A DNA stretch of 64,000 nucleotides from Escherichia coli (GTDB lineage Bacteria; Pseudomonadota; Gammaproteobacteria; Enterobacterales; Enterobacteriaceae), in assembly GCF_002854065.1 (NCBI RefSeq), contig NZ_CP024147.1; one strand, 5' to 3'. Positions within the stretch are counted from its first letter, which is position 1, and every line of letters starts with the position of its first letter. Below the pieces are notes generated by a model. It was not told where the DNA came from and did no database searches. It saw only the letters and a list, made by a program, of their open reading frames with translations. Both the position numbers and the translations under genes were made by a program. Positions 4,900-17,803 of this stretch are shown here, piece by piece.

Positions 4900-5931
4900 T
4901 CAACCGTCGATAAATACGTCCGCCAGGGGTTTATGGCACAACAGAAGAGATAACCCTTCCAGCTCTGCCCACACTGACTGACCGTAATCTTGTTTGAGGG
5001 TGAGTTCCGTTCGTGTCAGGAGTTGCACGGCCTGACGTAACTGCGGCTGACTTAAGCGATTTAACGCTTCGCCCATCATGCGCCGGCGGTTCTGCCATAC
5101 CCGATGCTTATCAAACAACGCACGCAGTGGCGTATGGGCAGACTGGCGTTTCAGGTTAACCAGTAACAACAGTTCACGTTGTAATGTGCGCAACAAAATA
5201 ACCGGCTCGCTGCCTTCCAGACGCAGTTGCTGAAGAATATGCAACGCGCGCTTACTTTTTCCCATCAACAAAGCATCAACCCAATGAAAAGGGGTGAAAT
5301 GCGCGGCATCATTCACCGCCTGTTCAACGCGCGGTAATGTCAGTTTGCCGTCTGGCCAGAGCAGCGATAAACGCTCCAGTGCCTGAGCCAGCGCCAGCAG
5401 GTTACCTTCATAACAGTAGCAGAGCACCTGATTTGCAGCGTCATCCAGTTCTAAGTTGAGCTGTTTTGCGCGCGCAGCAACCCAGCGGGGAAGCTGAGCC
5501 TGCTCCGGTGTCTGACAGGTCACCTGCACGCTGCGATTCGCAAGAGCAGTAAACCAGGCGGCATTTTCTTGCGCTTTGCTTAATTTATTACCGCGGACGA
5601 TCAACAGCAGGTCGTCATGCAGAAGTCCGGTGAGTGTGAGAAGTTGTTCATTGATCGCCGCATTCGGTCCGTTTTCTGGTAACAACAGCAATAGCGTTTG
5701 TCGACTGGCAAACAGACTCATAGCCTGGCATAACGAAAAGATCGCATTCCAGTCAGTGTTGGGATCAATGGAAAAAGTGTGGTGTTCTTCGAATCCTTGT
5801 GCCGCAGCTACCTGACGAACAGCGTCCTGGCTTTCCTGCAATAACAGAGGATCGTTACCAAGTAAAAGATACGCCGCGCGCAGCCCTTCATTGAGCTGCG
5901 CGCGGAGTTGTTCCGGGTACAACCGAATCAT
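4900..5931 (-). CDS. holA: DNA polymerase III delta subunit
   Basis: 343-aa ORF; conserved nadD-holA-lptE-leuS order; stop overlaps lptE start. Confidence 0.92.
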
Positions 5932-6526: not shown

Positions 6527-9109
6527 TTAGCCAACGACCAGATTGAGGAGTTTACCTGGTACGTAAATCACTTTACGTACAGTAACGCCATCAAGATATT
6601 TTGCTACCAGATGTTCCTGGCCAGCACGTTCGCGAACCTGTTCTTCCGTTGCGTCCACCGGAACGGTGATTTTGGCACGGACTTTACCGTTAACCTGCAC
6701 CACGACCAGCGTGGAGTCTTCCACCATCGCTTTTTCGTCAGCAACCGGCCACGGCGCGTTGTCGATATCGCCTTCGCCTTTCAGTTCCTGCCACAGCGTG
6801 AAGCAAATGTGCGGGGTGAACGGGTTAAGCATACGGACAACGGCCAGCAGTGCTTCCTGCATCAGAGCGCGATCCTGCTCGCCATCGGTCGGTGCTTTCG
6901 CCAGTTTGTTCATCAGCTCCATAATCGCCGCAATTGCGGTGTTGAAGGTCTGACGACGGCCGATATCATCGGTCACTTTAGCGATAGTTTTATGCACATC
7001 GCGACGCAGCGCTTTCTGATCTTCAGTCAGTGCATCAACGTTCAGTGCCGCAACATCACCTTTCGCAGTATGCTCGTACACCAGTTTCCAGACACGTTTC
7101 AGGAAGCGGTTAGCCCCTTCCACGCCGGACTCCTGCCATTCGAGAGTCATATCAGCCGGAGAAGCAAACATCATAAACAGACGAACGGTGTCCGCGCCGT
7201 AACGTTCAACCATCACCTGCGGGTCGATACCGTTGTTCTTCGACTTGGACATTTTGCTCATGCCGGTATAAACCAGTTCATGGCCTGCCGCATCTTTCGC
7301 TTTCACGATACGGCCTTTCTCGTCACGTTCAACGATAGCATCAACCGGGGAAACCCAGTTACGTTCGCCGTTTTCGCCAACATAGTAGAAGGCATCTGCC
7401 AGCACCATACCCTGACACAGCAACTGTTTCGCTGGTTCGTCAGAGTTCACCATGCCTGCATCACGCATCAGTTTGTGGAAGAAGCGGAAGTAGAGCAGGT
7501 GCATAATGGCGTGTTCGATACCACCAATGTAGATATCCACCGGCAGCCAGTAGTTAGCCGCTTCGGAATCCAGCATACCTTCTTTGTACTGCGGGCAAGT
7601 GTAGCGCGCATAGTACCAGGAGGACTCCATAAAGGTGTCGAAAGTGTCGGTTTCACGCAGTGCTGGCATACCGTTAACGGTAGTTTTCGCCCACTCCGGA
7701 TCTGCTTTAATCGGGCTGGTAATGCCGTCCATTACCACATCTTCCGGCAGGATCACCGGCAGCTGGTCGTCCGGGGTCGGCATTACGGTACCGTCTTCCA
7801 GCGTCACCATCGGAATCGGCGCGCCCCAGTAACGCTGACGGGAAACACCCCAGTCGCGCAGGCGGTAGTTCACTTTACGCTCGCCAACGCCCATCGCAGT
7901 CAGTTTATCGGCGATGGCGTTGAAGGCCGCTTCATGGTCAAGACCGTTGAACTCGCCAGAGTTGAACAGCACGCCTTTTTCAGTCAGGGCTTGCTGAGAA
8001 AGATCTGGCTCAGAGCCGTCAGCCGCCAGGATAACCGGTTTGATGTTCAGGCCGTATTTAGAGGCAAACTCGTAGTCGCGTTGGTCGTGCCCCGGAACCG
8101 CCATTACTGCGCCCGTGCCGTACTCCATCAATACGAAGTTTGCTGCCCAAACGGGAATTTCTTCGCCCGTTAATGGGTGAACAGCTTTAAAGCCAGTATT
8201 GACGCCTTTTTTCTCCATCGTCGCCATTTCAGCTTCAGCAACTTTGGTGTTACGGCATTCGTCAATAAAGGCCGCCAGTTCAGGATTATTTTCCGCCGCT
8301 TTCTGCGCCAGCGGATGACCCGCAGCTACCGCCAGGTAGGTACAACCCATAAAGGTGTCCGGGCGGGTAGTGTAAACGGTCAGCGTGTTGTCATAGTCGT
8401 TAACGTTGAAGGTGATTTCCACGCCTTCGGAACGACCGATCCAGTTACGCTGCATGGTTTTAACGGTGTCTGGCCAGTGATCCAGTTTATCCAAATCGTT
8501 GAGCAGCTCGTCAGCGTAAGCAGTGATTTTGATAAACCACTGCGGGATCTCTTTACGTTCAACTTTGGTATCGCAGCGCCAGCAGCAGCCGTCGATAACT
8601 TGTTCGTTCGCCAGTACGGTCTGGTCGTTCGGGCACCAGTTGACCGCAGAAGTCTTCTTATATACCAGGCCTTTTTTATACAGCTCGGTGAAGAATTTCT
8701 GTTCCCAACGGTAGTATTCCGGCGTACAGGTTGCCAGCTCGCGGCTCCAGTCATAACCAAAGCCCAGCATTTTGAGCTGGTTTTTCATATACGCGATGTT
8801 GTCGTACGTCCACGGTGCCGGAGCGGTGTTGTTTTTCACCGCCGCGCCTTCCGCAGGCAGACCAAACGCGTCCCAGCCGATCGGCTGCAGAACGTTTTTG
8901 CCCAGCATGCGCTGGTAACGGGCGATCACGTCACCGATGGTGTAGTTACGTACGTGGCCCATGTGTAGTCGACCAGAAGGATAGGGAAGCATAGACAGGC
9001 AGTAATACTTCTCTTTGCTCTCGTCTTCGGTTACTTCAAATGTGCGCTTCTCATCCCAATGAAGCTGTACTTTGGATTCTATCTCTTCCGGGCGGTATTG
9101 CTCTTGCAT
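6527..9109 (-). CDS. leuS: Leucyl-tRNA synthetase
   Basis: Class I aaRS signatures (HMGH motif, KMSKS-type MSKSK). Start set at MQEQYRPEE (860 aa); the ORF track extends 8 codons further upstream to 9133. Confidence 0.95.
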
Positions 9110-9896: not shown

Positions 9897-10880
9897 CTAC
9901 AGTAAATCTTCAGTCTCACGAATTTCCTGACTGACATCTCTGGTTCCGGATGACTGAACTTTACGATACAGGTCGAGAGCCTGTCGGAGATCGACAGGTC
10001 TTCCTTCTCCGTAGTGATACATAATGGCCAGGTTATACCAGGCAGTGGCGTCATTGCATTCAGCGGCTTTCGTAAACCATTCAAAGGCAGCCTGATAATC
10101 TTTCTCAACGCCTTGTCCGTGTTTATACATATAACCGATGTTGACGTAAGCGCCGACGCTCCCCTGAGCGGCAGCCTTCAGATACCAGTACATCGCTTGC
10201 TTATAGTCCTGGTCCACCCCTTCGCCAGCGTTATAATCCCATGCAATTTGAAACTGAGCATGCCGATTACCCTGCTGTGCGCTTTTCAAATACCAGAATG
10301 CGGCGAGTGTCTCGTTTTGAGCAACGCCTTTTCCGTCTTCATAAAGATCGGCCAGATTGTTTTGCGCGTCACTATGGCCTTGTAATGCAGCTTGTTTGTA
10401 CCAGAAAAATGCCAGCGTATAGTCTTGTGCGACTCCGTTGCCATTTCTGTACATCCACCCAAGATTATTTTGCGCATAAGACATTCCGCTCTCCGCGGCT
10501 ATCTGATACCAGGCAACCGCTTCTTTATAGTTGGGGTCTTCTCCACGATCCAGTATCCAGCCAAGGGCGTTGGAAGCGAAAGTATGGCCTTGTAGGGCAG
10601 CTTTTTTCAGCCAGAAGATGGCTTGCTCATTATCTTTATGACGGCTTTTATCCTCGGTATACTTTTGCCCTAAGGAATACTGTGCTTCACAATGACCTTG
10701 CTCAGCGGCCAGCTTCAGCCAGTAAAAGGCCTTTTCGTCGTCCGGAGAGTCAATTGCGCTATCGCGATTATAATAAAACCCAACAATATATTGAGCCTCA
10801 CTATCGCCTTGTTCAGCACGTTCGATAATCTCATCTATTGACAAATTATCGCAGCAACTTGACGTAAAAATCATTATCAT
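9897..10880 (-). CDS. ybeQ: Sel1/TPR-like repeat protein
   Basis: 327-aa ORF made of repeated Sel1-type units (recurring A..W..KAA.QG...AQ..LG..Y motifs). Confidence 0.85.
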   Translation of the reverse strand: MIMIFTSSCCDNLSIDEIIERAEQGDSEAQYIVGFYYNRDSAIDSPDDEKAFYWLKLAAEQGHCEAQYSLGQKYTEDKSRHKDNEQAIFWLKKAALQGHTFASNALGWILDRGEDPNYKEAVAWYQIAAESGMSYAQNNLGWMYRNGNGVAQDYTLAFFWYKQAALQGHSDAQNNLADLYEDGKGVAQNETLAAFWYLKSAQQGNRHAQFQIAWDYNAGEGVDQDYKQAMYWYLKAAAQGSVGAYVNIGYMYKHGQGVEKDYQAAFEWFTKAAECNDATAWYNLAIMYHYGEGRPVDLRQALDLYRKVQSSGTRDVSQEIRETEDLL

Positions 10881-11037
10881 TTCCTTATGGTTGCAGATAA
10901 AAGATATTATATTTTTATGTGTTCCGTTTTTGCGTAAGTCTTATTTTATGCGTATTATGTTGTGTCGGAAAAGTATAAATAAATGAGCCTCGTAATGTAG
11001 TTTACATTCATTAAATGAATGTTTAAGGATAAATTAT

Positions 11038-11745
11038 ATGGACATAGAGTCGCAAAAAATATTGTTTGCACTTTCCACTCCGATGGAAATACGCAATGAA
11101 TGCTGTTTACCTTCGCATTCATCCCCCAAAATGTATTTAGGTACATGCTTTTTTGACCTTTCTTCCTCCTGGGGAATTGATGACCGTGATGACCTGCTGC
11201 GCACAATTCACCGAATGATCGATAACGGTCATGCCGCGCGGTTGGCAGGGTTTTATCACCGCTGGTTTCGTTATTCTCCATGTGAATGGCGTGACTATCT
11301 TGCTGAATTAAATGAGCAAGGTCAGGCTTATGCGCAATTTGTCGCCAGCACAGCCGAATGCTGTGGTGAGGGAGGAATTAAAGCATGGGATTATGTCCGG
11401 ATGGGTTTTTTAAGTCGAATGGGCGTACTTAATAACTGGTTGAGTGAAGAAGAAAGTCTATGGATCCAGTCGCGTATTCATCTACGGGCTCTACGTTATT
11501 ATAGTAACTGGCGGCAATACTTTGCCGGTTATACCTTTGGTCGGCAATATTGGCAGTCTCCCGAAGATGATAATCTGCCTTTATTACGTGAATTCTTAGC
11601 GCGTAAAGAATACGACGATTCCGGCAATGATATGTTTTATCAATTATTTGCCAGTGATGATGCGTATTACCCTACCTTGTCCTGGCAACCATTGGCTTAC
11701 TATTCTGCATGCCCGGAAACGCTTAAGGATATGAGCGACCTATGA
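11038..11745 (+). CDS. ybeR: DUF1266 family protein
   Basis: 235-aa ORF, paralogous to the ybeU product in this window (shared [20 protein letters not shown] core); stop overlaps djlB start. Confidence 0.85.
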
Positions 11746-13169
11746 AAAATTGCTGGAAGATCCTCGAAATAGAGGAAACGACTGACGTCGATATTATCCG
11801 CCGCGCTTATCTGGCGCTGTTACCGTCCTTTCATCCAGAAACCGATCCGCAGGGTTTTAAACAACTTCGTCAGGCGTATGAGGAGGCGCTACGGATTGCG
11901 CAGTCGCCTGCTAAATCTGTTTGGCAACCAGAAGAATATGAGGTAGCAGAACATGAAATTCTGCTCGCCTTTCGTGCGTTACTTGCCTCTGATAGCGAAC
12001 GTTTTCTGCCCTCCGCCTGGCAGCGATTCATTCAGCAATTAAATTATTGCTCGATGGAAGAGATTGATGAATTACGCTGGTCGCTGTGCACAATCGCCAT
12101 GAACACTGCCCATTTATCCTTCGAGTGCGTGGTGTTATTAGCAGAAAGATTGCGGTGGTTGCAGGAGGAAAACGTCGGGGAAATAGACGAAGAAGAACTG
12201 GAATCCTTTTTATATGCCATTGCGAAGGGGAATGTTTTTAACTTCCAGACCATTCTGCATCTGCCCGTTGCCGTGCAAAATGACACCATCGATTTTTACC
12301 AAATGTTCGCTCGGATTTGGTCATCGCATCCAGAATGGCTGACATTGTATTTAGCGCAACATCGCGCAGTGATTATCCCCGATGATGCAAAACTGCACAG
12401 AAATTTACTCCGCTGGTATAGCGCAGGTCGCCTGGGAATTCCCGAACTCCTGGATTACGCCCGGTCGTGGCGGGAAGCTGAACCTGATAATGAAGATGCG
12501 CGTTATTATGAATACGCGCAACGCGTCTATTGTGGAGAAGGCGAAAGCCTGCTGGCAGAACTTTGTGACTACTGGCACGAGTATCCCTCCACTCAGGCGG
12601 ATGCTTTAATGTTGCAATGGTGCCGTCAGCATCGAGTCGATTATTACCCATTAGTGGTGATGATGATTGAAGCTCGCGAACTGGTTAACGACCAGGGAAA
12701 ACCGCTACTTTATGTCCCCGGCGACAGCGCCCGTACGCGTTTTCATTTATACGAAATACTCAGCGATGAAAAACTCTCTGCGCTGGGGCGTTCACTGGTC
12801 GAGATGGTTTTGCACAAAGGACGTAAGCCGCGGATCTCACTCAAGCGTGATACAGAACATACCTTATGGCCATTATATCTAGTTGCCAAACAATTAGTGC
12901 AGGCCAGCCAACCTACAGAAGAATCATTAATGCCGATTGTAAGCCGTCTTGATGCAGAAGATCGTTGTCCACTGGAAGCATTAATTATTCGTCGATTATT
13001 AATTCAGGCGGCGAATTTTACCGAGAAGCAGACTGTTGAACCGGAGCCGCAACCGCAGCCAATGCCCGTTGCCGATGGTGGGCCAGGCTGTCTGGGCATC
13101 ATTAAAATTATTTTCTATATTTTTATCTTTGCTGGTTTGATAGGGAAAATACTCCATCTGTTCGGGTGA
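11742..13169 (+). CDS. djlB: Tail-anchored J-domain-like co-chaperone DjlB
   Basis: 475-aa ORF; N-terminal J-like domain with HPETDPQG in place of HPD, C-terminal hydrophobic anchor ([19 protein letters not shown]); paralogue of DjlC. Confidence 0.85.
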
Positions 13170-13178
13170 CAGTCGACG

Positions 13179-13733
13179 TTAATGTGCGGGAAGCCCGGCA
13201 AGTAATCTTTCCGCATTTTTGTAATGTTGTTTGGCGGCCAGTTTTAACCATTTTTGAGATTCATAATGGTTAACATTAATACCTGAGCCATTTCTGTAGA
13301 TCAAACCTAAAGTATATTGAGCATGAGCATACCCTTGTTCAGCTGCTTCCTTATACCAGAGAATTGCTTTACGGGTGTCGGGTTTGACCCCCAGACCTTT
13401 GAGGTAGATCCACCCCAGTTTACTTTGCGCGCGTGGATTTTCCTGTTCCGCTGATTGCTCATACCAGTATCTCGCCTGTGTATAATCCAGTGGTTTACCG
13501 TCGCTACCATGAAGATAAAATTCTCCAAGGCGATATTGCGACGTTGAGTGACCATGAATCGCGGAAAGCTCCGTGGCTGCCGTGGTGAATGGAAGACTGC
13601 CCGGTGAGCTTAAATAATCAAAGGCATAATTCACCATGGCTTTATCACGCAACGTCGTTTTCTTGGGTTGGCTAATACAGGTAATTGCTGCAACTATAAA
13701 AATTGCGAATATATACATTAATTTTTTATTCAT
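13179..13733 (-). CDS. ybeT: Sel1-repeat protein with signal peptide
   Basis: 184-aa ORF; N-terminal hydrophobic signal-like segment then Sel1-type repeats. Confidence 0.82.
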
Positions 13734-13834
13734 GTGTGAATGCTTCGATTTTCTTTTTATTTTGAAAGCGTCAAGTTTATACTCATCAATAATAAAAAAG
13801 TAGTCAGTTAATGCACTTAAGGGATTATTAACAA

Positions 13835-14542
13835 ATGAATAAGGAAGAACAATATTTTCTTTTTGCGCTTTCTGCGCCCATGGAAATACTTAATCAGGGT
13901 TGCAAACCCGCGCATGACTCGCCAAAAATGTATACCGGGATAAAAGAATTCGATCTCTCATCATCCTGGGGAATAAATAATCGTGATGATTTAATTCAGA
14001 CTATTTATCAGATGACTGATGATGGTCATGCTAATGATTTAGCTGGCTTATATCTGACATGGCATCGCTCTTCCCCTGAAGAGTGGAAAGCATTAATTGC
14101 TGGTGGCTCGGAGAGAGGGTTGATTTATACCCAATTCGTTGCCCAAACCGCTATGTGCTGTGGAGAAGGGGGAATCAAAGCTTGGGATTATGTTCGAATG
14201 GGGTTTCTGTCACGGGTCGGTGTGCTCAACAAGTGGCTGACGGAAGACGAGAGTTTATGGCTGCAATCGCGCGTCTATGTACGAGCTCACCATTACTATC
14301 ACAGCTGGATGCACTATTTTTCTGCCTATTCACTAGGGCGTCTCTACTGGCAATCTTCTCAGTGCGAAGACAACACTTCGCTACGCGAGGCGCTAACCCT
14401 GTACAAATACGATAGCGCCGGGAGTCGTATGTTCGAAGAACTGGCAGCGGGAAGCGATCGTTTCTATGCCACGCTTCCCTGGCAGCCATTAACTGTCCAG
14501 CCTGAATGCCCGGTAACGCTTAAGGATGTGAGCGACCTATGA
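13835..14542 (+). CDS. ybeU: DUF1266 family protein
   Basis: 235-aa paralogue of YbeR; stop overlaps djlC start. Confidence 0.85.
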
Positions 14543-15990
14543 AAACATGTTGGCAAATCCTCGAAATTGAAAGCACGACGCAAATAGACATTATCCGCCA
14601 GGCTTATCTTGCTCGCTTACCGTTATGTCATCCCGAAACCGATCCGCAGGGGTTTAAAGCATTACGCCAGGCCTATGAAGAGGCCCTGCGACTGGCGGTA
14701 AATCCTGTCGAGGAAGCAGATGATGAAGAAAAAGATGCCGCCGCTGAACATGAAATACTACGTGCATTCAGGACATTACTGGATTCAGAAAGTGATCGTT
14801 TTCAGCCTTCCGCCTGGCAGAAATTTATTCAGCAATTAAATACCTGGAACATGGAGGATGTCGATCAATTACGCTGGCCGCTGTGTGCAATCGCTATAGA
14901 AGCGCGATATCTTTCATTAAATTGTGCTTCTTTGCTGGCAGAGCGTTTGAACTGGCATTCGTTTAATGACAGCGAAGGAATAGATGAGGAAGAAAGGGAG
15001 GCTTTTCTTGAGGCCATTCAGGCTGGTGATTGTTTCGATTTCCTTAGCCTTCTGGAATATCCCATTGCGTTGCAGAACCAGACTGTTGAATATTACTTCG
15101 CGCTGGAACGTTGCTGTCGTTACCATCCTGACTATGTCACTGCGTTTTTGGCGATGGCAGGTCCGTGGTTAATTCCTGATGATGCGAAGTTGCATCGCAA
15201 ACTGTTGCGCTGGTACTGCTCGGTGCAAACAGGTATGGCGGAACTCATTCCTGTTGCCCAACAGTGGCAAACGGAAGAACCAGAAAGCGAAGATGCCCGG
15301 TATTACCAGTGTGCACAACGTTTGTACTGCGGCGAGGGGGAAAGCCTGCTTGCCGATCTCTGCGCGTACTGGGGAAGTTACCCATCTACACAAGCCGATA
15401 ATTTGTTGTTGCAGTGGAGCGCACAACATTGCCCGGATTATTTCGCGTTATTAGTGATGGTTATCGAAGCGCGGAGCATGGTAGATGCGCAAGGTAAACC
15501 GTTGAAATATGTTCCTGGTGAGAGCGCCCGGACGCGTCTGTTATGGGCGGAAATTTTACATAGCGGAAAACTATCGCCGTTAGGTCAATCGTTTATTGAG
15601 TCGCTATTCTTCAAACGCAAAGCATGGGCGTGGTGGAAATCGAGAGTCGGTAGCGAGACAGAAGAAGATTCACCGTTACTGGATTTGTATCGGGTAGCGG
15701 AACAGGTAGTACTTGAAGCGTTTCCGAAACAAGAGATGCTGGCCCGTCTTAATACAAGGCTGGAAGGCGGAGATGCTCATCCATTAGAGGCCATTATCAC
15801 CCGGATGCTGTTGACGAAAGTAAAACTCGAGCCGGAGGATGAAGATGTCGATGAGCCAACACCTGAAAACCATGAAGAAAAAAATGATGAGGATGAAAAA
15901 CCACAGAGCATTACCAGCATTATCAAAATCAGCTTAACGGTGCTGGTGATAGGTTATGCTCTCGGCAAAATCGCGATGTTGTTTAGTTGA
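14539..15990 (+). CDS. djlC: Tail-anchored J-domain-like co-chaperone DjlC
   Basis: 483-aa ORF; N-terminal J-like domain ([22 protein letters not shown]), acidic linker, C-terminal membrane anchor. Confidence 0.85.
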
Positions 15991-16003
15991 CGATGTGTTT
16001 TTT

Positions 16004-16046
16004 GCGCCGATGCCGGATGCAGCATTTACGCCGCATCCGGCAGCCG
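16004..16046. repeat. REP (repetitive extragenic palindrome) between convergent djlC and hscC
   Basis: gccggatgc...gccgcatccggc palindrome typical of enterobacterial REP units. Confidence 0.7.
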
Positions 16047-16049
16047 TGA

Positions 16050-17720
16050 TTATGGGATCTCAATGGCTAAATAAACGCTCGCCCGCCGCCTGACCTCATC
16101 GACGCGGGCCATATCGTTTGACTGCAGCGCCGCATCAAAATCGGTGATCACCCGGCCAATCTCTTCTCGCTCGTCACCCAGCGCCCGCGCCCACAACTCT
16201 TCCAGTTTGGCTTTAAAGGTACGATTGATGAGCATATCGCGCGGATAAATTTTCAATGCGGATAACCGCGTCCGACTCTCTTCAATCTGCTGCGCGCTCA
16301 ATGTTACCGGGCTGTGGTTAATCACTCTGGACTTAACGCTGCCGTCTTCCAGAAGCACGTCAACTTCAAGCAAGCCGTTGATATCATAACTAAAGCGAAT
16401 ATCAATCGACTGATAAGCTCCGGTTTTCTTCAACGGCACATCGAAGGATTCCACCAGAATGTTATTTTTAACTTTGTGGTTTTCTCCCTGATAGACGTTA
16501 ACCGTAATAGAATCCTGTTCCGGGTGCATGGTCGAGTAAGTTTCTACACGCGACACCGGTACTGTGGTGTTTCGTTCAATAATCGGCGAGAAAATGCCGG
16601 AAACGCCCTGGCGGTTAACTTCAACGCCCAACGAGTAAGGGCAAATATCAGTGAGGATCACTTCTTCAATATCTTCACTGCGTAAGCGGCAGGCGGCCTG
16701 GATTGCTGCGCCCAGCGCGACAATGGTGCTCGGATCGTAACTTTGATACGGTAATTTGCCAAACAGACGCACGGCGATTCGCTGCACCAGCGGCATTTGT
16801 GACGCGCCGCCAACCAGCACCAGACTGTCGATCTGACTCGGCTTCAGACGCGCATCGCGCAATGCCTGTTCAATCGGCACTCGCAAGCGGTTAAGCAGAG
16901 GCAACCACAAATCTTCCAGTTCGTTCTCGTAAAATTCGCACTCCAGCGTTTCTTCCTGGTACTGCCAGCGAATGTGCATTGGCAATTGATTGCTACATTT
17001 TGCCGCTTCCACACAGGCGTACAGGGCAGCCAGTTCGCTCTCGTTAAGGGCTGTTTTGGCGACTTCCGCGCGTTTTAAAACTTCATCGACCAGCATATGA
17101 GTAAAATCTTCGCCACCGAGGAAGTTATCGCCCGCTGAGGCGTGAACTTCAATCACCGGCGTGGCGTACTCAAGCACCGTAACGTCAAACGTGCCGCCAC
17201 CGAGATCAAATACCAGCGAGCGGGTGTTTTGTTGGGTATGCAGGCCATACGCCATCGCAGCTGCCGTTGGCTCATTAATCAGGCGAACTGCATTTAAACC
17301 GGCTAACTCCGCTGCTAAACGGGTATGCTTGCGTTGTTCATCGCTGAAATAAGCCGGAACAGAGATCACCACATCTTTAATCGGACGTTGCAGAAATTCT
17401 TCGGCATCTTCTTTTAATGAACGTAATACCAAAGAGGACAGTTCTGGCGCGTTAAATGTGTCGCTGCCTAACCGCCAGTTGGTATTACTGCCCATTGCAC
17501 GTTTAAATAACGCTGCCGTTTTATCCGGATGCGAAGTACGCCGTGATACAGCCGGTTTTCCGACTAAAATATGATTATTTTCATCCATGCTAATTATGGA
17601 TGGTGTTAAATATTCACCGAACTTATTTGGAATTAATTGCGCGGCACCGTCTTTCCAGACGGCAATTAAACTATTGGTAGTACCGAGATCGATACCAATG
17701 GCGAGTTCTGCATTATCCAT
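16050..17720 (-). CDS. hscC: Hsp70-family chaperone HscC (Hsc62)
   Basis: 556-aa ORF with Hsp70 ATPase signatures (IGIDLGTTNS; DLGGGTFD). Confidence 0.92.
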   Translation of the reverse strand: MDNAELAIGIDLGTTNSLIAVWKDGAAQLIPNKFGEYLTPSIISMDENNHILVGKPAVSRRTSHPDKTAALFKRAMGSNTNWRLGSDTFNAPELSSLVLRSLKEDAEEFLQRPIKDVVISVPAYFSDEQRKHTRLAAELAGLNAVRLINEPTAAAMAYGLHTQQNTRSLVFDLGGGTFDVTVLEYATPVIEVHASAGDNFLGGEDFTHMLVDEVLKRAEVAKTALNESELAALYACVEAAKCSNQLPMHIRWQYQEETLECEFYENELEDLWLPLLNRLRVPIEQALRDARLKPSQIDSLVLVGGASQMPLVQRIAVRLFGKLPYQSYDPSTIVALGAAIQAACRLRSEDIEEVILTDICPYSLGVEVNRQGVSGIFSPIIERNTTVPVSRVETYSTMHPEQDSITVNVYQGENHKVKNNILVESFDVPLKKTGAYQSIDIRFSYDINGLLEVDVLLEDGSVKSRVINHSPVTLSAQQIEESRTRLSALKIYPRDMLINRTFKAKLEELWARALGDEREEIGRVITDFDAALQSNDMARVDEVRRRASVYLAIEIP

Positions 17721-17803
17721 TGCATTTATATCTTGAAAGAAAAAGAGATAAACAGATTAAGACCACCCAGGTAACGCGTGGTGATCTTAATCAATGACGT
17801 GTG

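Follow-up and report, generated by a model that had tools for sequence, protein, structure and literature searches.

His-Pro-Glu in place of His-Pro-Asp in the J-like domains of DjlB and DjlC, encoded near the Hsp70 gene hscC

Two paralogous genes near hscC in Escherichia coli encode J-like domains that carry His-Pro-Glu (HPE) where His-Pro-Asp (HPD) would be expected, which raises the question of whether HPE is the true HPD counterpart and whether its glutamate makes the interface with HscC a dedicated one. To our knowledge, HscC is the least understood of the bacterial Hsp70s, with cadmium and UV phenotypes as its only ones. The role of the glutamate bears on how pairs of J-domain proteins and Hsp70s stay insulated from each other. 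Our analysis indicates that HPE is very probably a genuine, functional HPD counterpart in a DjlB/DjlC subclass, whose exclusivity most likely stems from a whole co-evolved surface with Glu as one element. The substitution itself is real but already described, as the distinguishing mark of J-domains that serve HscC alone: it is stated for DjlB and DjlC in PMC10410713 (Malinverni et al., 2023) and in a 2026 review (PMC13254874). HPE and the exclusive pairing with HscC are established in the chaperone field, and the finding as such adds nothing new there.

The djlB-djlC locus and its two HPE tripeptides

We analysed a window of 64 kb, the whole stretch of DNA presented, which contains the E. coli ybeQ-ybeR-djlB-ybeT-ybeU-djlC-hscC region. 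Open reading frames and domain searches identified ybeQ (9897..10880, minus strand), which encodes a Sel1-repeat protein upstream of ybeR, and ybeR itself (11038..11745, plus strand), which encodes a DUF1266 protein and whose stop codon shares an ATGA with the start of djlB. The open reading frame of djlB (ybeS; 11742..13169, plus strand) encodes 475 aa, and identical DNA is named djlB in RefSeq. A further Sel1-repeat gene, ybeT (13179..13733, minus strand), lies between the two DUF1266-J modules. The second module comprises ybeU (13835..14542, plus strand), a DUF1266 paralogue of ybeR with 59% identity, and djlC (ybeV; 14539..15990, plus strand; 483 aa), the djlB paralogue, recognised by its open reading frame and RefSeq annotation and again joined to its neighbour by an ATGA overlap of stop and start. 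The gene for the 556-aa specialised Hsp70, hscC (ybeW; 16050..17720, minus strand), lies 60 bp downstream of djlC in convergent orientation.

DjlC and DjlB are 51% identical overall and 76% identical over residues 1-55, and YbeQ and YbeT share 38% identity over 124 aa. The position of ybeQ and ybeT beside the DUF1266-J pairs suggests a duplicated three-gene unit (Sel1/DUF1266/J). The DUF1266-then-J order was also found in two other loci (L002 and L012), and a genome scan gave DUF1266 matches in at least 14 HPE loci; 13 are strong matches in gammaproteobacterial loci. PADLOC defence-system models gave no match to DjlB, DjlC, YbeR, YbeU, YbeT or HscC, and NCBIfam models gave none to DjlB, DjlC or the DUF1266 proteins.

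Both paralogues read H31-P32-E33-T-D-P-Q-G-F, the HPD-equivalent tripeptide with its conserved extension (11832..11858 in djlB and 14629..14655 in djlC, both on the plus strand); the HPE codons themselves occupy 11832-11840 and 14629-14637. This bears out the sequence-only reading, which had proposed HPE in place of HPD in both copies and had given residues 30-40 of DjlB and of DjlC exactly as we read them. The range that it assigned to the observation, 11742-14700, opens with djlB and closes shortly after the DjlC motif, so that it spans two genes and is not one feature. A degenerate DNA pattern for HPETDPQG matched exactly twice in the window, with 0.00 matches expected from 100 shuffles.

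Alignment of the tripeptide was consistent across methods. When aligned by MAFFT with the E. coli proteins DnaJ, CbpA and DjlA, as had been proposed, and also with HscB, both sequences placed HPE on HPD, and phmmer comparison with solved J-domains did the same. The Pfam DnaJ model (PF00226) aligned residues 4-47 to profile positions 2-51 of 63. As single sequences, DjlB and DjlC scored 21.9 and 19.4 bits against this model, both below its 27.8-bit gathering cut-off, and some relatives exceed the cut-off (P0135 at 30.1 bits). Similarity to J-domains was established through a family profile (A2, 81 members), which returned 40 matches in the PDB, all of them J-domains (best E = 3.5e-8). The J-like domain (residues 1-55) was assigned to 11742..11906 in djlB by Pfam, profile, AlphaFold2 and Foldseek, and to 14539..14703 in djlC by its Pfam DnaJ match and MAFFT alignment with the E. 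coli J-domains, both on the plus strand.

The AlphaFold2 model of DjlB has helices at residues 4-8, 16-26 and 36-54, corresponding to J-domain helices I, II and III only, and H31-P32-E33 falls in the predicted loop of the helix II-III hairpin (27-35; pLDDT about 87-92). The top Foldseek matches were all J-domains, for example 5nro_B at an rmsd of 2.1 Å over 53 columns. The literal HPD of a canonical J-domain is replaced by HPE in both proteins, and no helix IV is predicted; in the model, residues 58-68 are disordered, and the helix that follows them (72-82) is part of the body. The predicted layout of DjlB comprises the J-like domain, a disordered linker, an all-alpha body (72-432) and a C-terminal transmembrane tail anchor, with a terminal hydrophobic helix at 451-474 and pLDDT below 50 at 58-68 and 433-449. 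This body and anchor match the class, in which Pfam PF27158 (DjlB_C_2nd) is annotated on homologues and distant relatives, and DjlC has been described as a tail-anchored inner-membrane protein (PMC8215388). The DjlB helical body gave no significant match to PDB folds, the best being weak and TPR-like (E ≥ 0.15), and a lookup of structures for HscC, DjlB and DjlC returned none.

A true HPD elsewhere in either protein had been named as the result that would overturn the assignment, with HPE then a coincidence of a mistaken alignment, and an HPD does occur at residues 196-198 of DjlC (RYHPDYV). This stretch sits in the helical body, reads HPE in DjlB and is not one of the conserved positions when full-length sequences are aligned, whereas four independent alignments put HPE on HPD and the model places HPE in the helix II-III loop. 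Residues 196-198 are refuted as the equivalent by phmmer, MAFFT, the PDB profile search and the structure model alike, and neither DjlB nor DjlC contains another J-type HPD. We give this explanation virtually no credence.

Conservation of the glutamate and linkage to HscC-type Hsp70 genes

All 113 close homologues carry HPE. Among 106 representatives at 50% identity that include the J region, chosen without motif selection, we found 89 HPE, 12 NPE and 3 other xPE tripeptides, giving Glu in 104; the two exceptions are a canonical DnaJ-like protein with HPD and a frameshifted fragment. We also scanned genomes with Asp/Glu left free, using a degenerate DNA pattern that requires DP-[QE]-GF-xx-LR, so that the proportions are not population frequencies: the matches listed comprise 84 NPE, 36 HPE, no HPD and 1 chance NPD, with Glu in 120 of the 120 genuine matches among them. 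Glu is kept in all orthologues examined, a result contrary to the other outcome that had been named as refuting, a lack of HPE conservation among orthologues. One base substitution would turn GAR into GAY, so that the lack of Asp implies selection for Glu.

The conservation extends beyond the tripeptide. The class motif [H/N]-P-E-x-D-P-x-G-F, which covers the helix II-III loop and the start of helix III, reads HPETDPQGF in both proteins. In alignment A2, whose members were picked by regular expression, G38 never varies, and D35, P36 and F39 are each conserved to 90% or more. The equivalents of the essential DnaJ residues (Y23, H31, P32 and F39) are retained from phylum to phylum, and purifying selection is evident.

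An HscC-type Hsp70 gene (556-566 aa) adjoins the J gene in 6 of the 6 metagenomic loci with a complete Hsp70 gene, and the Hsp70s of the metagenomic loci are 43-60% identical to HscC versus 33-37% to DnaK; in a seventh metagenomic locus (L013), the contig breaks off within the Hsp70 gene and shows only its N-terminal part. In the genome scan, 64 of the 120 loci listed contain an HscC-type Hsp70, which in every case matches HscC with a better score than either DnaK or HscA. The gene adjoins the J gene in 15 of the 18 listed genome loci that have 3 kb or more of DNA on each side. HPE and NPE J-like domains adjoin HscC-type Hsp70 genes across distant phyla, and the linkage to HscC that marks the DjlB/DjlC class is present here.

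These patterns bear on whether the domains are degenerate, incapable of Hsp70 stimulation and with HPE as a relic. The type IV J-like proteins, such as human DNAJB13, also depart from the HPD consensus and are presumed unable to stimulate Hsp70, and such decay would fit the sub-threshold Pfam scores of both DjlB and DjlC, the helix IV missing from the model and the loss of the canonical Asp. Conservation across phyla of the HPE motif together with Y23, H31, P32 and F39, and of the linkage to an Hsp70 gene, speaks against it; in DjlB and DjlC the variant residue is invariant rather than drifting. The stimulation of the HscC ATPase by DjlC is reportedly 8-fold. [quoted passage not shown] We consider degeneration highly improbable.

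The HscC interface and the origin of specificity

The premise that J-domains need HPD, from which the sequence-only reading started, rests on D-to-N and H-to-Q mutants; HPE is described as the only triad replacement that seems tolerated (PMC13254874). According to PMC10410713, roughly 2,900 J-domains carry HPE, about 1,700 of them prokaryotic, with DjlB and DjlC named as examples, and about 1,200 are eukaryotic J-domain proteins. HPE counts there as a rare variant of the triad, and the survey differs from our account in that its available text reports no [H/N]PE-x-DP-x-GF motif, Asn variants or HscC linkage.

Compared with DnaJ, the DjlB/DjlC domain has the same helix I-II-loop-III layout with the tripeptide at the same loop position, and DnaJ Y25, H33, P34, F47, R22, K48 and K51 are kept as Y23, H31, P32, F39, R20, K40 and R43. 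It differs in having Glu for Asp35, a helix II-III loop about 6 residues shorter, no predicted helix IV and, in E. coli DjlB and DjlC, Leu/Ala for K26/R27. It also differs in function, in that this type of domain does not work with DnaK: the DjlC J-domain cannot substitute for the one in DnaJ (Kluck 2002, cited by PMC1906734 and PMC8215388).

To compare the partner surfaces, we took the HPD-contact residues of DnaK from PMC8215388. HscC keeps R146, Q341, L356 and P388 (DnaK R167, Q378, L391 and P419) and has N448 for DnaK D481, S444 for D477 and T357 for L392; a 4-residue deletion removes the equivalent of DnaK D211, a loop deletion that PMC8215388 had noted. Across the 55 partner Hsp70s of the loci listed, R167 is retained in 55 and Q378 in 52, and the deletion of 209-212, L392T and D477S/T each occur in 55 and D481N in 52 (DnaK numbering). 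The DjlC-HscC pair resembles HscB-HscA, in which a specialised Hsp70 likewise has a J-protein reserved for it and encoded close by; both pairs are GrpE-independent, and both Hsp70s lack the D211-region loop. HscB, however, keeps HPD, and HscA retains D481 and L392, which are Asn and Thr in HscC-type proteins.

DjlB and DjlC would act as membrane tail-anchored co-chaperones, with H31-P32-E33 exposed in the II-III loop of an N-terminal three-helix J-like domain. If the DnaK-DnaJ complex (5NRO) is taken as a guide, this domain would bind HscC in its ATP state across the interdomain linker. The contacts to be expected are a bond from His31 to the linker backbone at HscC L356, packing of Pro32 against P388, and bonds from Glu33 to R146 and Q341. 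Such docking would trigger ATP hydrolysis by HscC at the inner membrane. Exclusivity may arise on the J side from the loop shortened by about 6 residues, the absence of helix IV and, in the enterobacterial copies, the change of the DnaJ K26/R27 charges to Leu/Ala; on the HscC side, the deleted D211 loop and the changes of D477 to Ser/Thr, D481 to Asn and L392 to Thr may contribute. DjlB is presumably an HscC partner too, the biochemistry covered by PMC8215388 being that of DjlC.

The Asp-to-Glu exchange could instead be the specificity switch by itself, with Glu33 barring productive docking on DnaK and HscA, being required for HscC and thereby keeping the HscC system apart from the general chaperone network. 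Consistent with this, Glu is invariant and Asp never occurs in the class, among the matches listed and in the homologue sets, although it lies one base change away, and the class is strictly associated with HscC-type Hsp70s. In addition, HscC-type proteins have Asn for DnaK D481, an SBD residue in contact with R167/I168 when ATP is bound; this exchange could alter the local geometry at the Arg to which the acidic residue binds. The direct partners of Asp35, R167 and Q378, are nevertheless unchanged in HscC, and many other interface differences could account for specificity. Moreover, the eukaryotic HPE J-domain proteins, about 1,200, are reported in lineages without HscC (PMC10410713 and PMC8215388), and the literature searched yielded no E-to-D or D-to-E swap experiment. 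We regard a switch by Glu alone as unlikely and favour the whole co-evolved surface. The proposal of a dedicated interface with HscC is upheld for the DjlB/DjlC-HscC pairing, through stimulation of HscC by DjlC only and through gene linkage; Glu as its cause is only partly supported, with R167 and Q378 kept in HscC and other interface positions differing.

Asn-Pro-Glu relatives

Many relatives, mostly from Lachnospiraceae, carry NPE, making Glu more conserved than His. These J-domains adjoin HscC-type Hsp70 genes and otherwise look fully conserved; NPE J-proteins with a neighbouring Hsp70 are encoded, for example, in Hungatella hathewayi DSM 13479 (L045) and Acetatifactor muris (L071). The NPE variants may be undescribed; our literature searches for NPE together with the HPD motif and Hsp70, and for the phrase HPE motif together with J-domain, returned no match.

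The NPE relatives would matter more than HPE itself because they run against the rule that the triad His is indispensable. If NPE J-domains are active, the HscC branch would trigger ATP hydrolysis without the His-linker contact needed in every tested Hsp70 system. We tentatively propose, while holding it rather doubtful, that in the HscC-linked J class Glu is the one indispensable triad residue and His is dispensable, the exclusion of Asp marking Glu as a determinant of insulation against DnaK.

As a candidate for a partner position co-varying with His/Asn, we considered DnaK position 170, which is Ser in 36 of 41 NPE partners versus 1 of 14 HPE partners in the loci listed. We rejected it, as it follows the Lachnospiraceae lineage: an HPE locus from Lachnospiraceae has Ser, and NPE loci of Massilia, Asticcacaulis and others have Asn. 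NPE J-domains are abundant among Clostridia, Lachnospiraceae included, with scattered cases among Alpha- and Betaproteobacteria.

Position and fold of the HPE tripeptide

The sequence-only reading had reported HPE in place of the canonical HPD in the J-like domains of both DjlB and DjlC, and its residue numbering was correct: H31-P32-E33-T-D-P-Q-G-F is present in DjlB (11832-11858) and in DjlC (14629-14655), and the window contains two matches to a degenerate HPETDPQG pattern, with zero expected. All four alignments placed HPE opposite HPD, namely phmmer against solved J-domains, including DnaJ in 5NRO, 1XBL and 1BQZ; MAFFT with DnaJ, CbpA, DjlA and HscB of E. coli MG1655; the Pfam DnaJ model; and a profile built from 81 family members and searched against the PDB, which returned 40 matches, all of them J-domains (best E = 3.5e-8). 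The HPE observation is accurate and goes far beyond what chance would give, and an HPD equivalent located elsewhere in the proteins did not hold up on examination.

A second tripeptide of the HP[D/E] type was observed at residue 196, reading HPD in DjlC (15124-15132) and HPE in DjlB (12327-12335); it lacks J-domain context and is absent from the conserved columns of the family alignment. The DjlC HPD (residues 196-198) was rejected as the real triad, as it lies inside the helical body and DjlB carries HPE at the same place.

The AlphaFold2 model of DjlB 1-80, computed from the family alignment, has helices at residues 3-8, 16-26 and 36-54 (pLDDT 87-89 across 11-50), with HPE in the predicted loop 27-35 and disorder after the third helix. 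The best Foldseek matches of this model in the PDB were all J-domains (5nro_B, rmsd 2.1 A over 53 columns), with weak E-values (0.05-0.2), as expected because the J-like domain is so small. In the full-length model (mean pLDDT 84.8), the three-helix J-like domain is N-terminal to a disordered acidic linker (58-68), followed by an all-alpha body (72-432) without a significant match among PDB folds, a second disordered stretch (433-449) and a terminal hydrophobic helix (451-474). This predicted layout agrees with the tail-anchored topology published for DjlC (PMC8215388). The helix II-III loop of DjlB and DjlC is some six residues shorter than in DnaJ, no helix IV is predicted in DjlB, and the Pfam match ends at profile position 51 of 63. 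DnaJ residues Y25, H33, P34, F47, R22, K48 and K51 correspond to like residues in both proteins (Y23, H31, P32, F39, R20, K40 and R43), whereas K26 and R27 are replaced by Leu and Ala.

Conservation of the triad glutamate

Conservation among orthologues was confirmed in the 120 closest database clusters (Escherichia, Salmonella, Citrobacter, Enterobacter and others), where all 113 with an intact N-terminus carry HPE followed by [TSNI]-DPQG. Full-length DjlB, used as the query in an exhaustive HMMER search of 1.84 billion representatives, recovered 2,246 proteins; the best 146 were aligned to DjlB 1-52 without use of the motif, and the J region was present in 106. Among these, 89 carry HPE, 12 NPE, and one each SPE, PPE and LPE; one is a canonical DnaJ-like protein with HPD, and one a frameshifted fragment. 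We further scanned one genome per species with a DNA pattern encoding [H/N]-P-[D/E]-x-D-P-[Q/E]-G-F-x-x-L-R, in which the third residue could be either Asp or Glu. This yielded at least 121 matches, and those listed comprise 84 NPE, 36 HPE, no HPD and a single NPD, the last a chance match that contains an in-frame stop and lies outside any J-domain context. Because Glu and Asp codons differ by one base change and Asp is wholly absent from the genuine matches listed, selection for Glu is indicated. Glu is more conserved than His in the DjlB/DjlC class.

The Asn-Pro-Glu variant is the most interesting by-product of this analysis. It accounts for 84 of the 120 genuine genome-scan matches listed (loci within L015-L133), including Hungatella hathewayi (L045), Acetatifactor muris (L071), Massilia rubra (L086), Sandarakinorhabdus (L101) and Asticcacaulis (L118), and was also found in the database-search proteins P0233, P0238, P0247 and P0248. 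Its carriers are mostly TPR proteins of 1,000-1,200 aa from Lachnospiraceae and other Clostridia, with others in Alpha- and Betaproteobacteria, and 10 of the 11 fully flanked NPE loci among the matches listed adjoin an HscC-type Hsp70 gene. To our knowledge, the triad His is regarded as essential in all J-domains tested. The literature searched contained no mention of an NPE triad. This variant is found repeatedly, in several lineages, and the Hsp70 interface positions checked show no change that goes with it.

Gene order and linkage to HscC-type Hsp70 genes

In this E. coli chromosome segment the gene order is leuS - ybeL - ybeQ - ybeR - djlB - ybeT - ybeU - djlC - hscC - rihA, with djlB (11742..13169, 475 aa) and djlC (14539..15990, 483 aa) on the plus strand and hscC (16050..17720, 556 aa) on the minus strand. 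Positions 11000-17800 match, at 100% identity, RefSeq E. coli genomes annotated with these gene names, and at least 80% of this segment is found in 3,698 of 5,426 complete genomes. Positions 9897-15990 look as if a three-gene unit had been duplicated in tandem (ybeQ/ybeR/djlB and ybeT/ybeU/djlC), the unit encoding a Sel1-repeat protein (ybeQ, ybeT; minus strand), a DUF1266 protein (ybeR, ybeU; plus) and a J-protein (plus). Identity is 38% for YbeQ/YbeT, 59% for YbeR/YbeU and 51% overall for DjlB/DjlC, rising to 76% across residues 1-55. In both copies the DUF1266 gene precedes the J gene, and its stop codon overlaps the J-gene start by 4 nt (ATGA).

The same order and 4-nt overlap were observed in the metagenomic neighbourhoods L002 (2202-5569) and L012 (5285-8685). 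Among the genome-scan matches listed, DUF1266 matches occur in 13 gammaproteobacterial HPE loci (L014, L023, L028, L030, L033, L038, L039, L058, L062, L064, L084, L092 and L104) and in no NPE locus. Together these observations suggest that DUF1266 proteins form a third part of the HscC system in proteobacteria, coupled to it at the level of translation. In the literature searched, DUF1266 is mentioned by one paper. On an Oscillibacter contig (L048), two HPE J-proteins in tandem (5045-5083 and 8416-8454) lie directly downstream of a single HscC-like Hsp70 gene, an independent instance of the E. coli-type arrangement of two J-proteins per HscC.

Distant relatives share the N-terminal domain and are much longer (~890-1,240 aa), carrying the DjlB_C_2nd region (PF27158), TPR repeats and, in some, a DUF805 membrane domain. 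A complete Hsp70 gene (559-566 aa) lies beside or near the J gene in six of eight metagenomic neighbourhoods inspected, its product being 43-60% identical to HscC versus 33-37% to DnaK; in L013 the Hsp70 N-terminus is at the contig end, and L005 is too short to tell. An Hsp70 ORF was found in 64 of the 120 genome-scan loci listed, most of the others being too short to be informative; for each of these Hsp70s the score against HscC exceeds those against DnaK and HscA. Where the J gene is complete and flanked on each side by 3 kb or more, the proportion is 15 of 18 loci listed. Among the taxa represented are Pseudomonas, Yersinia, Rahnella, Budvicia, Gilliamella, Massilia, Asticcacaulis, Paenibacillaceae, Clostridium, Oscillibacter and many Lachnospiraceae.

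The HscC surface and the proposed role of Glu33

HPE in DjlB and DjlC is already known, being named in PMC10410713 and PMC13254874, which lowers the interest of the finding. HscC is stimulated by DjlC alone, with DjlB assumed to act likewise (PMC8215388), the DjlC J-domain is unable to replace that of DnaJ (PMC1906734), and a 2026 preprint recognises DjlC-type J-domains with HscC as one of three bacterial pairing classes. Our search found no solved structure of HscC, DjlB or DjlC. When DnaJ is in complex with DnaK, its H33 makes a bond with the backbone of linker residue L391, P34 packs on P419, D35 bonds R167 and Q378, and E206, D211, E217 and D477 stand opposite basic J-domain residues (PMC8215388). 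HscC keeps R167, Q378, L391, P419, E206 and E217 (R146, Q341, L356, P388, E184 and E191), lacks D211 through a four-residue deletion also noted in that review (PMC8215388), and substitutes D477 by Ser, D481 by Asn and L392 by Thr. Across 55 Hsp70s encoded beside HPE or NPE J genes in the genome-scan loci listed (L014-L129), R167 is kept, 209-212 deleted, and linker L392 changed to T, K421 to S, K414 to Arg and D477 to S/T in all 55; Q378 is kept in 52 and D481 is N in 52. With R167 and Q378 kept and D211, D477, D481 and L392 changed, the residues predicted to receive the acidic side chain are thus unchanged in different surroundings.

The HPE loop most likely acts as HPD does elsewhere and sets off ATP hydrolysis in HscC; it would be delivered by membrane-anchored DjlC and, we infer, by DjlB, with Glu33 predicted by homology to contact HscC R146 and Q341. 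The DjlC J-like domain is active, since its stimulation of the ATPase has been published. The sequence-only reading of a dedicated, non-promiscuous interface with HscC agrees with current opinion apart from the postulated causal role of Glu. That Glu itself confers the exclusivity seems rather unlikely. In its favour, Asp is never seen at this position in the class, and the D481N change adjoins the Arg that would receive the acidic side chain; in ATP-bound DnaK, D481 of the SBD clamps on R167/I168, and D481A raises basal ATPase 80-fold (PMC8215388). Against it, the direct partners R167 and Q378 are conserved in HscC and, according to PMC10410713 and PMC8215388, HPE occurs in ~1,200 eukaryotic J-proteins without HscC. 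The exclusivity of the DjlB/DjlC-HscC pairing is best explained by the co-evolved surface as a whole.

The changes around the J-domain docking site (D481N, D477S/T, L392T, K421S, K414R and the 209-212 deletion) form a signature common to HscC-type Hsp70s, within which the Oscillibacter loci L048 and L123 represent a divergent subgroup that keeps D481.
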